Shown here: piece after piece, positions 57,340-63,974 of the stretch
Layout of the letters: every line of letters begins with the position of its first letter
How positions within the stretch are numbered: position 1 is the first letter of the stretch
Source: Kondoa subrosea
Taxonomy: Eukaryota
Length of the DNA: 64,000 nucleotides
Direction of reading: 5' to 3'
Assembly: GCA_039545335.1 (NCBI GenBank)
Contig: BCIN01000002.1
Coordinates: 1,315,118 to 1,379,117, forward strand
Notes under the pieces: generated by a model
What the model was told of the DNA's origin: nothing
The model's database searches: none
The model's input: only the letters and a program-made list of their open reading frames with translations
Position numbers and translations under genes: made by a program

Positions 57340-57495
57340 GATAGGCTGCAGGTATTGATAAAGATACCTTCGGAACCGCTTTGTCGGATCGGATGCTGAA
57401 TGTTGCCCACTTTCGCTTGAGATAAGTGCAGAGACAGTCGGATAAAGGTCGATAAGCCATGTTTTTGCCAAGTAGCGATGAGCGGATAAGTTGCA
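57340..57495. promoter_or_regulatory. GATAA cluster plus CGG repeats upstream of the PuuE-like gene
   Basis: GATAA at 57357, 57421, 57441, 57451 and 57485; CGG-N11-CGG-AT-CGGATGC at 57371-57396. Confidence 0.7.
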
Positions 57496-57637
57496 TAACG
57501 GTTGTTGGCTGAAAGCAAGACGCTGGAGCTCAGATCGCTCTAATTGTACAAAATTCAGTGAAATTGACAATACATTGATATCGCGTTCTCACCGAAGCAA
57601 AAGCGTTCAGCATGCGCTTTCCTTTTTGTGAATACTT

Positions 57638-59757
57638 CTATGTCCCAGCACCCTTCTCTATTTTGTGCTGCTCCTCCTCCACCATAGTTTCGCTCGCTAT
57701 CGAATCGCTTTGCTGTTCCACGTCCTTTTCCTTTGCCAGGACTGCTATTGGTACAGCCACGGATTGCGACACTTGGCTAAGTCTGATGTCCTATCAGGTG
57801 TCTAGAAGTCAGCCTCTGCGGAGGGCGCCAACACTGGCTTTACCTTTAAGAAGAGACATATCAGCAAGCAAATGCCGACGATAGGTACAAAGAGGATGAA
57901 GACAGCCTTAAGACCTTTCATGTCTGTGCGAGTACAATGAGAAAGAGCGCAAATGACAAAGATCGGCGACTGACAAGCTTCTATTACAGCCAAGCGCTGT
58001 GCTTCGGGCGCGGAAGAAGAAAGAATAGGCCTATCTTCTAATTGCTGTCTTATTTCTGGCGTTATAGAAGGAGGGAGGTTTGAGAAGAAGATATTATTGA
58101 GAACAGCATTGCATACAGCGAGTGCTATTGCTCCGCCCGACTAGCGATCGGTCAGAGTGTATTCATATGTCACCCTGCGTATATAGCTTACTGTTCGAGC
58201 AAAATTGCGAGCGCCTGTAATAACAGCACGATCTTGCGAAGGTCCTGATGCTTGTGCCAGAACAAGGGTACTTTGTAGAGTAGCCCCGATGCCAATGCCT
58301 TGTATCAGTAGCACTACAACGACAACACCTGGTGAGGTACCAGAAGCGAAACACAATTGAGCGCCTTGTCCAGCAAACCAGAAGACGAAACCAAACACAA
58401 AAGATGACCAAGTTCGATCGGTCTTCTTGACAACGAAGCCTGAAATAGTAGTAGTAAAGACTTGGGTGAGAACAAGAGGTAAAAGCAGAGTAGCGGAGAG
58501 AATTGGACTGCATCCGAGCACATTTTGTAAGTAGAGCGGTACATAGAAGACTACAATAGAGCGTCAGCACCGCCACTTGACAAGTCAGAAGTTAATTAAT
58601 TACTGTTTCCATAATACACTGCACCAACAAGCCAAGTTTGTAGTAGTAAGAAACATATATTCTTGTTCTTGAATCTGTATGAACATCAGAAACATGCTCA
58701 GAGTCGTATGGAAACAACTCACAGCCTTCCTGGTATCAGTGGAAGCTTTGCTATTCGCCATTCAACAAAGATGAAGAGAGCTAAAGCGATTCCACCGGCA
58801 ACGAAAAGACCAATGACCGTTGACGACGACCAAGCAAAAGTCGAGCCTCCTCCAGATGCCGGAACCTACATTGTGTTTGTAACATTACACAGATCTAGGA
58901 GGGAAAGCTTACCAGAATCAATATCGTCATTGCCAGACTAAGGAAACTGCCAAACCAATCCATTGCCTTCATTTTTGACCAGAAGTTGCCTGATACAGGT
59001 GCCAGAGGAACAAGAAACCAGATGAGGATCATGCAGCAGAATGAACAGGGTGCCGTAATCCAGAAGACCTGTTTTTAGATAATTAATCTCTGTCCAATCT
59101 ACGGGCCATTGAACTTGCCCAGCCCCAGTATATCTTCTCAGCGATTGCTCCACCCAAGAATGGACCAGCTGCTGATCCCAAAGCAATAGCGATTCCGAGC
59201 AGCCTGGAAGTCTCTGGTCAGCTGGCTTTTTCCATCTCGAATCTTAAGCACTACCGACCCTTGGTATTTGCCTCGATCTTCTAGTGACACTACATCCGAT
59301 AGAATGATCATACTGTTTACAAAGCAGTTCAGCTGTGAATGAGGCAGTGCTCTACGGAAGACATAAGTCACCTCAAACTGTTGATTCCACCACCGCCAAT
59401 TCCCGCTATACCTCTCGCATAGTATAGCCATACTGGATTCTTTGCGAACCCACATAGCAGATCCCCAAAAGCGAACAAAGCTAGAGCACCGAGAAGTATT
59501 ATTTTCCTGCCAAAGCAATCTGATAATCTTGAAGTGATAATTTGGAAAGCTGTATTGGCTACAAGAAATGAAGTCCCAAGCCAAGTAATCGAGCTGGATG
59601 CCTGTAGAGCTTCACCAATTATTGGAGCCGCTGTTGAAACAGAAGTCGAATCCACGAAAGATAGAAAGAGAGCTACTTGAAGGCCGAAGAAGACTAGCAT
59701 AAGCTTGCTCTTTGAAAGACGCGATGTCTGATCTTGCAATTGTACTTCAGATGCCAT
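57638..59757 (-). CDS. MFS transporter, DHA2 (14-TM) drug:H+ antiporter-like
   Basis: LFLSFVDSTSVSTAAP, WLGTSFLVA, SRLSDCFGRK, ARGIAGIGGGG, SDVVSLEDRGKYQG, RNFART.GGAI. Confidence 0.92.
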
Positions 59758-60015
59758 GCTCGAAATCTTGATCAAGGCGCGGGCGAGAAAAATCAAGTAT
59801 TGCGATAGACTTCGCGTAGGCCAGAGAGACGCCAGTAGAGGACTAGAACTGCTAATGAGACGGGACAGACCCCTCTAGAGATTCTTGTGCCAAATTACAA
59901 CTTCCGACGGATTGTCCTATCGGATGCGCAGGGTCTCGGTGTGGAGACTTGTATCTTTCAACTTGTGTTCTTTATCGAAATCAAGCGAGACAGTATACCC
60001 CTAGTCGCCATAACT
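59758..60015. promoter_or_regulatory. Bidirectional MFS/P450 promoter with CTTCCG-A-CGG-N10-CGGATGC element
   Basis: 258 bp between divergent ATGs; element at 59901-59927. Confidence 0.65.
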
Positions 60016-62351: not shown

Positions 62352-62453
62352 TTGAGATGCAGGCAAAGTTCAGATCAAATAGCGCAGAGCTCAAGCATGC
62401 ATTGAGACGTAGGCAAAGTTCAGATTAAATAGCGCAGAGCTCAGGCATGCATT
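62352..62453. repeat. Imperfect 50-bp-period tandem duplication between P450 and SDR 3' ends
   Basis: TTGAGATGCAGGCAAAGTTCAGATCAAATAGCGCAGAGCTCAAGCATGCA followed by TTGAGACGTAGGCAAAGTTCAGATTAAATAGCGCAGAGCTCAGGCATGCA. Confidence 0.93.
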
Positions 62454-62533
62454 AAACTTCTGATCGTTTTTACAAAAGGTCGCTGCACATATACCTCACT
62501 GTCGACACGACGACTCAGGAGAAGGTCCAAAAC

Positions 62534-63765
62534 CTAAGCAAGAAAACGTACCGCAAAACGAGAAAAGCCGCCATCGATCTTGAGTGTTGACCCAGTCACA
62601 TAGCTGGAAGCATCGGAAGCAAGGAAGAGAATCGCTTCAGCAATCTCCTCAGGTCGTCCCTTTGTTGTCATGGAGTGAGAGGAGCATATAATGAGAACGA
62701 ACAGACAGACCAGTCTTTCCAGCATTGTCTTTCCAGCGAAGGATGGCCATTGATCTTTCGGAATATTGGACATCATCTAAGACAGCTGAATCAGATACAG
62801 GCTGCTAATATGCTAGCATGGGGCTCACAGGAGTCTCGATAGCTAATTGCAGTGGTGAGTTAAATTCGAGAAGCATGAGAATGAGACTTACGTCCCGGAG
62901 CAACGCAGTTCACTCTGATTCCCTCTGTCCCTAATTCTGCTGCAGCTGTCTGAGACATTTGTTAATCTAAAGTATGATGGAAGGGGAAGTTTACGAACCA
63001 GTGCGAGACCTCTTACCGCAAACTTTGATCCGCAGTAAGCCGCAAGTCCAGGAGCACTAATGTAATGTAAGAGACATAGTGAGTGCAGCTGATTCATGCT
63101 TACCCGTCAAGACCAAGTTGTGAACCGACCAAAACTATTGAACCTTTCGATTTTGCTGGTGGTGAAGAAGACCGTATAGCTCTGATGGAATGTTTCATAC
63201 CGAGGAAAGCTACGGAAACATGAGCTGAAAACAGCAGGAGACTTTCAACTGCTCACGCCCTTTTATATTGACTGAATAGAGACGATCCATAACGTCCACC
63301 GACAGCTCTGATATCGGTGTCTGGTCGTGTGTGATACCTGCACACTGAATGGAGATATCAAGTCGTCCAAATCGCTCGACAGTTCGCCTGTGCTTGAAAC
63401 ATGAGCGTTGTCCTGCAAATCCTGCTCAACCTACGCTGCGTAATTCTGGACTTCCACCTGCTCGAGAATGAGCACAATCACTGGCTTTCTGACAAGAGCT
63501 CACTTCTTGTGTAACATCGGCGGCCAACAGCAGACATTTTGCCTTGTTTTCTGTTGAAAGTATTGAGATTGCCTTTTCAAGTGCTTCCAATTTCAAGTCC
63601 ACCAGTCCAATGCCATCGATACCAGCTTGTAGAAAAGCCTGTACTGTAGCCAATCCAATTCCGGAGGCGGCTCCCTAATAAATGCTCGAATTTGTCATCT
63701 TCAGTTTCCTCTATTTTGTCTTGACTTACCGTCACTATGGCAACTTTTCCTTTCAGAGTATGCAT
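62534..63765 (-). CDS. Classical short-chain dehydrogenase/reductase
   Basis: [78 protein letters not shown]. Confidence 0.93.
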
Positions 63766-63974
63766 GCTTGATAGACTCAGCTTGTTCCTTGCACTTGCTT
63801 GGGGTTTGCTTGGACACGCGAGATAAGCAATTCCTTCGATCACATGTCTCTGTCGGCTGTATCTTATCGGATGCTTGCATTTGAGGAAGTTCCGAATTGA
63901 AGCGACCTTCCGTCCGGAAGTGGAAACGAACTCTGCTCTCTATCAATTCCCATTACCCTGCTTCCATCTTCACA
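63766..63974. promoter_or_regulatory. SDR promoter (probably bidirectional) with GATAAG boxes and CGG elements
   Basis: GATAAGC 63822, CTTATC 63863, CGG-N11-CGGATGC 63854-63874, inverted CTTCCG-TC-CGGAAG 63907-63920. Confidence 0.65.

Follow-up and report, generated by a model that had tools for sequence, protein, structure and literature searches.

The right-hand 8.4 kb of a 64,000-nucleotide stretch of Kondoa subrosea DNA (contig BCIN01000002.1, positions 1,315,118 to 1,379,117; referred to here as the window) contains a group of five genes of an intron-rich fungus, counting a possible open reading frame (ORF) at 63975. The other four were assigned to the PuuE-type amidohydrolases, the DHA2-type MFS transporters, the cytochromes P450 and the short-chain dehydrogenases/reductases (SDR), with families taken from Pfam searches on exon ORFs, gene models from tblastn with homologues, and each start placed at the earliest in-frame ATG that follows an upstream stop. 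The group has three 5' regions: that of the PuuE-like gene (promoter A), the 258-bp spacer between the divergent MFS and P450 genes (promoter B), and the 209-bp spacer between the SDR gene and the next ORF (promoter C). Each of them carries one + strand copy of the 9-mer ATCGGATGC, which has no other copy in the window and forms part of a longer conserved box, the subject of this report. The coordinates of genes, boxes and accompanying sites are collected in Table 1.

A 20-nt box in the three promoters

The count of three copies of ATCGGATGC compares with 0.42 expected by chance for 64 kb, or about 6.6 per Mb, and it was reached in none of 100 dinucleotide shuffles. The positions and strand that the preliminary description gave for this word proved exact and unique in the window, and the CGG contexts it reported around them were recovered as well: CGG(57371)-N11-CGG(57385)-AT-CGG(57390)ATGC in promoter A, CGG(59908)-N10-CGG(59921)ATGC in promoter B and CGG(63854)-N11-CGG(63868)ATGC in promoter C.

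A repeat search independently returned a three-copy, 20-nt family around the 9-mer, with 13 of its 20 positions invariant and a consensus of roughly G..TTRTC-NN-ATCGGATGC-K, about 15–20 bp. Considering the flanks of the 9-mer separately, five of 20 positions are invariant, four of them within the ten upstream positions (null P for at least five, 0.0076–0.0081). Five invariant flanking positions were reached by just two of the 280 clustered 9-mer triples of the window that are not of low complexity: this one, and another in a long ORF (52709–54121) that encodes a repetitive product with many R, E and S residues. When the box was converted into a weight matrix, the three copies scored 27–29 bits and the next best site of the window 15.2; the box is thus present in all three promoter regions of the group, with no comparable site elsewhere in the 64 kb. 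The best candidate start codon of the PuuE-like gene is 101 nt downstream of the 9-mer in box A; the 9-mer of box B is separated from the start codon of the MFS gene by 161 nt and from that of the P450 gene by 88 nt; and in box C it is placed at the exact centre of the spacer, 100 nt from both the SDR ATG and that of the next ORF.

Duplication of a promoter was dismissed as the origin of the box, as no extended similarity emerged when the three promoters were aligned over their full length with MAFFT, and the 9-mer of copy C fell out of register with the other two. In a word search of the literature, ATCGGATGC, GCATCCGAT, TCGGATGC and GCATCCGA occurred in no paper of the searched collection.

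Table 1. Genes, box copies and accompanying sites at the right-hand end of the window
Feature	Position	Strand	Remarks
PuuE-type amidohydrolase gene (polysaccharide deacetylase fold)	55637..57286	-	several introns; 5' end unsettled
DHA2-type MFS transporter gene	57802..59757	-	ATG at 59757 backed by homologue alignment from residue 6
Cytochrome P450 gene	60016..62229	+	many introns of ~55 nt; closest relatives in Sporidiobolales yeasts
SDR gene	62534..63765	-	
Possible divergent gene start (MLNEKEKD...)	63975..64000	+	runs past the window end
Box copy A, GCTTTGTCGGATCGGATGCT	57378..57397	+	9-mer at 57388-57396; tandem CGGAT-CGGAT at 57385-57394
Box copy B, GGATTGTCCTATCGGATGCG	59909..59928	+	9-mer at 59919-59927; in the divergent MFS/P450 spacer
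Box copy C, GCTGTATCTTATCGGATGCT	63856..63875	+	9-mer at 63866-63874; in the SDR/next-ORF spacer
Additional CGGAT pair, both as CGGATAA (57439, 57483)	57439..57487	+	join the box A cluster
Distal ACGGATTG	57759..57766	+	near the 3' end of the MFS gene; same 8-mer at 59907-59914 in promoter B, just upstream of the box
CTTCCGACGGA, everted CCG-N1-CGG	59901..59911	+	its CGGAT (59908) 10 nt before the box CGG
CTTCCGTCCGGAAG, palindromic everted CCG-N2-CGG	63907..63920	both	32 nt downstream of the 9-mer
Four HGATAR sites flanking box A	57339..57455	+	57339, 57356, 57420, 57450
Three HGATAR sites, promoter B	59803..59977	mixed	59803 (+); 59917 (-), overlapping the box; 59972 (-)
Four HGATAR sites, promoter C	63769..63945	mixed	63769 and 63821 (+); 63864 (-), overlapping the box; 63940 (-)

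CGGAT copies and GATA-factor sites around the box

When all 1024 strand-specific 5-mers were ranked, without prior choice, by enrichment in the three promoters, CGGAT came first, with eight copies on the + strand and none on the − strand where 0.68 were expected (P = 6.4 x 10−7); TCGGAT likewise led the 4096 6-mers. Five of the copies are situated outside the 9-mers (57385, 57439, 57483, 57760 and 59908; P = 7 x 10−4, eight cores having been tried), and promoter A is the only place in the window where at least three CGGAT follow one another within steps of 120 bp. A second arrangement pointed out in the preliminary description, CTTCCG-N1-2-CGGA, was found as described at 59901-59911 and 63907-63918, and the latter site, because it is palindromic, also matches on the − strand at 63909-63920. 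Such matches were expected 0.09 times in the window, and three were reached in none of 100 shuffles.

The same promoters are enriched in sites for GATA factors, a point absent from the preliminary description. Eleven HGATAR sequences were counted in the three stretches against 2.5 expected, with four, three and four sites in 214, 259 and 210 bp, for which the window-wide density predicts 0.78, 0.95 and 0.77. Only 0.9% of 214-bp segments of the window have at least four such sites, four being the maximum, and 5% have at least three. Ranked by HGATAR density, promoters A and C fall within the top ten loci of the window, and GATAA and GATAAG are among the top three enriched words of the three promoters. 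The box is flanked by GATA sites in every one of the three, and in copies B and C the 9-mer shares its 5' end with a − strand GATA site. This enrichment points to a putative nitrogen control of the group. The PuuE-like gene accounts for another two of the top ten HGATAR loci, one at its 3' end (55413-55728) and one within it (56451-56708).

Candidate activator and competing explanations

We conclude that the box is in all likelihood an element shared beyond chance, and its most natural interpretation, which we regard as moderately probable, is that of an operator for a pathway-specific activator working together with a nitrogen GATA factor. An operator for a pathway-specific activator had been put forward in the preliminary description, and the behaviour expected of a shared cis-element was indeed observed in the 20-nt extension, the conserved flanks, the clustering of CGGAT, the placement of the copies and the lack of other sites in the window; the attribution to a Zn2Cys6 factor that came with the proposal is plausible but unproven. 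In the scheme that we propose, the 9-mer would be the invariant core of a box occurring once, and in the same orientation, per 5' region of the PuuE-like, MFS, P450, SDR and possible fifth genes. One sequence-specific activator would recognise the CGGAT-type core in the box, the extra CGGAT copies of promoters A and B would raise its occupancy, and in each of the two short divergent spacers a single bound factor could drive both genes. A GATA factor of the AreA/Gln3 type would act jointly with it through the flanking HGATAR clusters, and the group would be switched on by its inducer only under scarcity of good nitrogen sources. Fungal clusters for the catabolism of nitrogen sources are usually controlled in this way, by inducer and nitrogen scarcity together. 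Binding, co-regulation, the link to nitrogen and the class of the factor are all what we infer from the sequence features and their statistics.

Several points weigh against this operator. All of the statistics are post hoc, and they concern a single locus chosen from a scan of very many windows. For as many as 261 canonical 9-mers, three copies can be found in this window no more than 6.6 kb apart, so that triple recurrence alone is common and only the placement, with one copy per promoter, is special. One-mismatch variants of ATCGGATGC are not enriched (20 against 13.9 expected, with at least 20 in 8 of 100 shuffles). The chance rate of about 0.003 estimated in the preliminary description for a 9-mer shared by three promoters was reproduced with shuffled promoter triples, 12 of 5000 of which shared any 9-mer on either strand. 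Real sequence was about three times more permissive than the shuffles, as a 9-mer was shared in 152 of 20,000 triples (0.76%) of matched lengths drawn at random from elsewhere in the window, 111 of them not of low complexity. At 0.2–0.8% per triple and about 20 triples per window, a chance match would arise in a few percent of windows, an estimate that leaves the flank and CGGAT evidence uncounted. Given the size of the scan, little weight could be placed on the 9-mer by itself, and therefore evidence independent of its selection was sought.

The uncertain start of the PuuE-like gene and the separation of the P450 and MFS orthologues also count against the operator. The first recognisable exon of the PuuE-like gene has no ATG, and among the in-frame models for its 5' end only one, starting at 57286, has a consensus donor (GTATGT). 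This model requires a 28-nt intron (57245-57218, GTATGT...TATTAG), about half of the ~55 nt that is usual at the locus (intron 1 of the P450 gene has 55 nt). In the remaining four in-frame models the start is at 57460 or 57496 and the donors are weak, and starts at these positions would place box A inside the first intron or the first exon. Neighbourhoods were judged by locus tags, for the PuuE-like, MFS and P450 genes. In all three Sporidiobolales species with both orthologues found, those of the P450 and MFS genes are thousands of tags apart (Rhopal_001325 and _004659; JCM8547_004388 and _001011; JCM8097_005568 and _000763), and because of this the five-gene group is probably not a cluster of ancient conservation. 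The PuuE-like and MFS orthologues of Kwoniella sp. DSM 27419, on the other side of the balance, are two locus tags apart (IAU60_005467 and IAU60_005465), on contigs of equal listed length, a proximity that counts in favour of the operator and indicates a likely functional link. Given the near pair in Kwoniella and the separation in Sporidiobolales, the PuuE-like/MFS pair appears to be old, with the P450 and SDR genes apparently added in this lineage only; provided that it is functional, the box would be the element that joins the two parts. A metagenome scan with the C-terminal exon of the P450 returned four loci that matched over only 22–25 residues around the heme motif and are not orthologues, and no look-alike of the region was found, by sequence or by relatives, among the other windows of the scan from which this one was chosen. 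Finally, no obvious regulator gene of any kind was seen beside the group within the window. The Zn2Cys6 motif C-x2-C-x6-C...C, whole or partial, was absent from the six frames of the 64 kb, where an intron could split it, and none of the 98 ORFs of at least 110 aa in the window matched the Zn_clus domain, the gene group itself running past 64000. The regulator, if there is any, is probably encoded beyond the window end or elsewhere.

As to the class of the activator, a Zn2Cys6 factor with a single or directly repeated CGG core is favoured if the site is real, with a likelihood somewhat short of even; a C2H2 factor, the main alternative on the same premise, is possible at a distinctly lower likelihood, and other classes take the remainder. 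A repeated core of CGG plus two bases is typical of the zinc-cluster family, and the invariant CGG at the heart of all three copies (57390, 59921 and 63868) agrees with this class, as does the first rank of CGGAT among 5-mers. The spacing between triplets, however, is not constant. The distance from an upstream CGG to that of the 9-mer is N2 and N16 in copy A, N10 in B and N11 in C, which puts the direct repeat out of register between copies. A single CGG is invariant, the spacer of the everted pairs changes from N1 in B to N2 in C, and the invariant part is a contiguous, asymmetric 9-mer. Because the second CGG has no fixed spacing, the sites fall short of what defines classical zinc-cluster sites.

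Triplet spacing and orientation are described as a constant specificity determinant of classical zinc-cluster sites such as Gal4 (CGG-N11-CCG), Hap1 (CGG-N6-CGG), Leu3 (CCG-N4-CGG) and Pdr3 (CCGCGG), in the portion of the source drawn on here (PMC10954478). With these sites, as portrayed there, the box shares the invariant CGG and the presence of nearby CGG triplets, direct in A, B and C and everted in B and C; it differs from their fixed spacing and unconserved spacer in having variable spacing and six invariant bases beside a single triplet. Another parallel is the site of Pho7, a Zn2Cys6 protein of Schizosaccharomyces pombe, which according to the part of the report used here reads 5'-TCG(G/C)(A/T)xxTTxAA and is asymmetric and about 12 nt long (PMC5559640). 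The box resembles it in its asymmetric single TCGG(A) core, TCGGA being positions 2–6 of the 9-mer, whereas the 3' half TTxAA is absent from copies B and C, and Pho7 belongs to the phosphate pathway of another phylum. The known consensus sites Rgt1, Lys14, CSRE, UaY, Tac1, Abf1 and Rua1 were compared by eye only, and none appeared to fit all three copies.

Of the explanations that compete with a zinc-cluster operator, the one that survives best is a factor of another class, for instance a three-finger C2H2 protein, to which the CGG content would be incidental; on the whole we consider it unlikely. An example among fungal clusters is Rua1, the C2H2 factor of the Ustilago ustilagic-acid cluster. 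A contiguous and asymmetric invariant 9-mer has the footprint size of three C2H2 fingers and would suit such a factor just as well as a zinc-cluster protein, and the irregular spacing of the second CGG, the unequal spacers of the everted pairs and the absence of a Zn2Cys6 gene from the 64 kb all agree with such a protein. So does the closest functional analogue of the group, the Aspergillus hxn regulon, whose factor HxnR is of the C2H2 class in the sections of the study relied on here (PMC8478523). Against it, the enriched core, eight copies of CGGAT on one strand, looks like a zinc-cluster half-site with its CGG triplet and two bases; Pho7, in the part of its report already cited, exemplifies zinc-cluster proteins with asymmetric single-TCGG sites (PMC5559640); and the only C2H2-like ORF of the window (17893-18393, a weak Pfam match) is 40 kb away.

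Chance, meaning that one 9-mer is common to three compact promoters by accident and that the additional features come from looking after the fact, is improbable. The frequency of threefold 9-mers, the permissiveness of real sequence, the size of the scan and the lack of enrichment of one-mismatch variants speak for it, and so does a shared 7-mer, AAGATAC, which was dismissed as a signal because some 7-mer was shared in 1857 of 5000 shuffles. It is opposed by the conservation of the flanks, which is independent of the selection of the 9-mer and ties for the best among the 280 triples, by the five further CGGAT copies on the same strand, by the first rank of this word in an unbiased list, and by the GATA enrichment, which marks the same three stretches independently.

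A third explanation, that the box is a composite or variant GATA-factor site for general nitrogen control and involves no pathway-specific factor, is very improbable. Copies B and C do contain a − strand HGATAR (CGATAG and CGATAA), all three promoters are rich in GATA, and ATCGGAT can be read as an ATC-G-GAT palindrome. However, copy A has GATC instead of GATA at that place, the invariant CGGATGC falls outside the GATA core, and the other eight loci of the window with four HGATAR sites have no box. The least probable explanation is a post-transcriptional element (in a 5' untranslated region or intron) or a core-promoter or start-site element, for which one could invoke the 88–101 nt between it and four of the ATGs, close to the size of a fungal 5' untranslated region, the presence of all copies on one strand and the alternative PuuE-like models that put copy A in an intron or exon, but a + strand copy cannot be sense in all five genes (three − and two +), no Rfam family matched in 55000-64000, and the other promoters of the window lack the box, which excludes a general core element.

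Comparison with known regulons and relatives of the genes

The nearest described counterpart of the group is the hxn regulon for nicotinate catabolism in Aspergillus nidulans. In the portions of its descriptions drawn on here, it includes a PuuE-related, ring-opening cyclic imidase, an SDR-type dehydrogenase and MFS carriers, and several of its gene couples have bidirectional promoters, each with HGATAR AreA sites and a motif for the specific factor (PMC8478523, PMC9304392). These portions also state that hxn clusters do not occur in Basidiomycota (PMC8478523, PMC9304392). The group in K. subrosea is similar to hxn, as presented there, in its PuuE-type enzyme, SDR, MFS carrier and bidirectional promoters, and in the combination of HGATAR sites with a short shared motif. 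It differs in other respects: HxnR is reported as a C2H2 factor with a predicted GHGGGG site and is encoded in its cluster, whereas no regulator gene was seen here; hxn, as described in the same portions, has no P450; and the Kwoniella protein that matches one exon of the PuuE-like enzyme is much nearer to the PuuE allantoinase (structure 3cl6) than to HpPgdA (3qbu), the closest known structural homologue of HxnM.

In the niiA-niaD pair of A. nidulans the Zn2Cys6 protein NirA and the GATA factor AreA act on both genes from a short bidirectional spacer. The promoters studied here are like this pair in their short bidirectional spacers and in the proposed combination of a specific activator with a GATA factor, but the NirA site is different, and niiA-niaD has been proven experimentally whereas the box is known from sequence alone. 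The principle of a shared box read by a specific activator together with a GATA factor is textbook fungal regulation, and the value of the present case is local, not conceptual. If real, the box would offer a way into a catabolic gene group that is still uncharacterised, in a sparsely sampled lineage of basidiomycetes: a genome-wide search for it would list the rest of the regulon, the box itself could be used as bait for the regulator, and the GATA context predicts a pathway that is on under poor nitrogen plus inducer.

A more tentative extension of the operator model, which we consider doubtful, is that the group represents an undescribed basidiomycete regulon for the breakdown of a nitrogen heterocycle or ureide, in which the MFS carrier would perform uptake, the P450 hydroxylation, the SDR oxidation and the PuuE-type enzyme ring opening. 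Its factor would be encoded outside the cluster, would read a new asymmetric site, TRTC-NN-ATCGGATGC, plus helper CGGAT copies, and would require a GATA partner. Such a regulon would be an independently arisen counterpart of the logic of the ascomycete hxn system.

The nearest relatives of the genes of the group were found in basidiomycete yeasts. The N-terminal exon of the MFS transporter shows 73–77% identity to proteins of Kwoniella, Rhodotorula, Rhodosporidiobolus and Phenoliferia, and the C-terminal exon of the P450 67–73% identity to Sporidiobolales proteins. For the PuuE-like gene, a search with one exon matched a single Kwoniella protein; compared with known structures, this protein gave E = 8 x 10−74 with the PuuE allantoinase 3cl6 and E = 1.6 x 10−11 with HpPgdA 3qbu.

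A divergent gene pair encoding an amidase and an NADH:flavin enzyme (old yellow enzyme) lies 10 kb upstream of the group (44783-47328). Neither the box nor a GATA cluster was found in the spacer of this pair (about 45.8–46.3 kb), and for this reason the pair does not look like part of the same putative regulon. Within the group, the P450 and SDR genes converge on a 3' spacer that contains a tandem duplication of 50 bp (62349-62448) whose two units are 90% identical.

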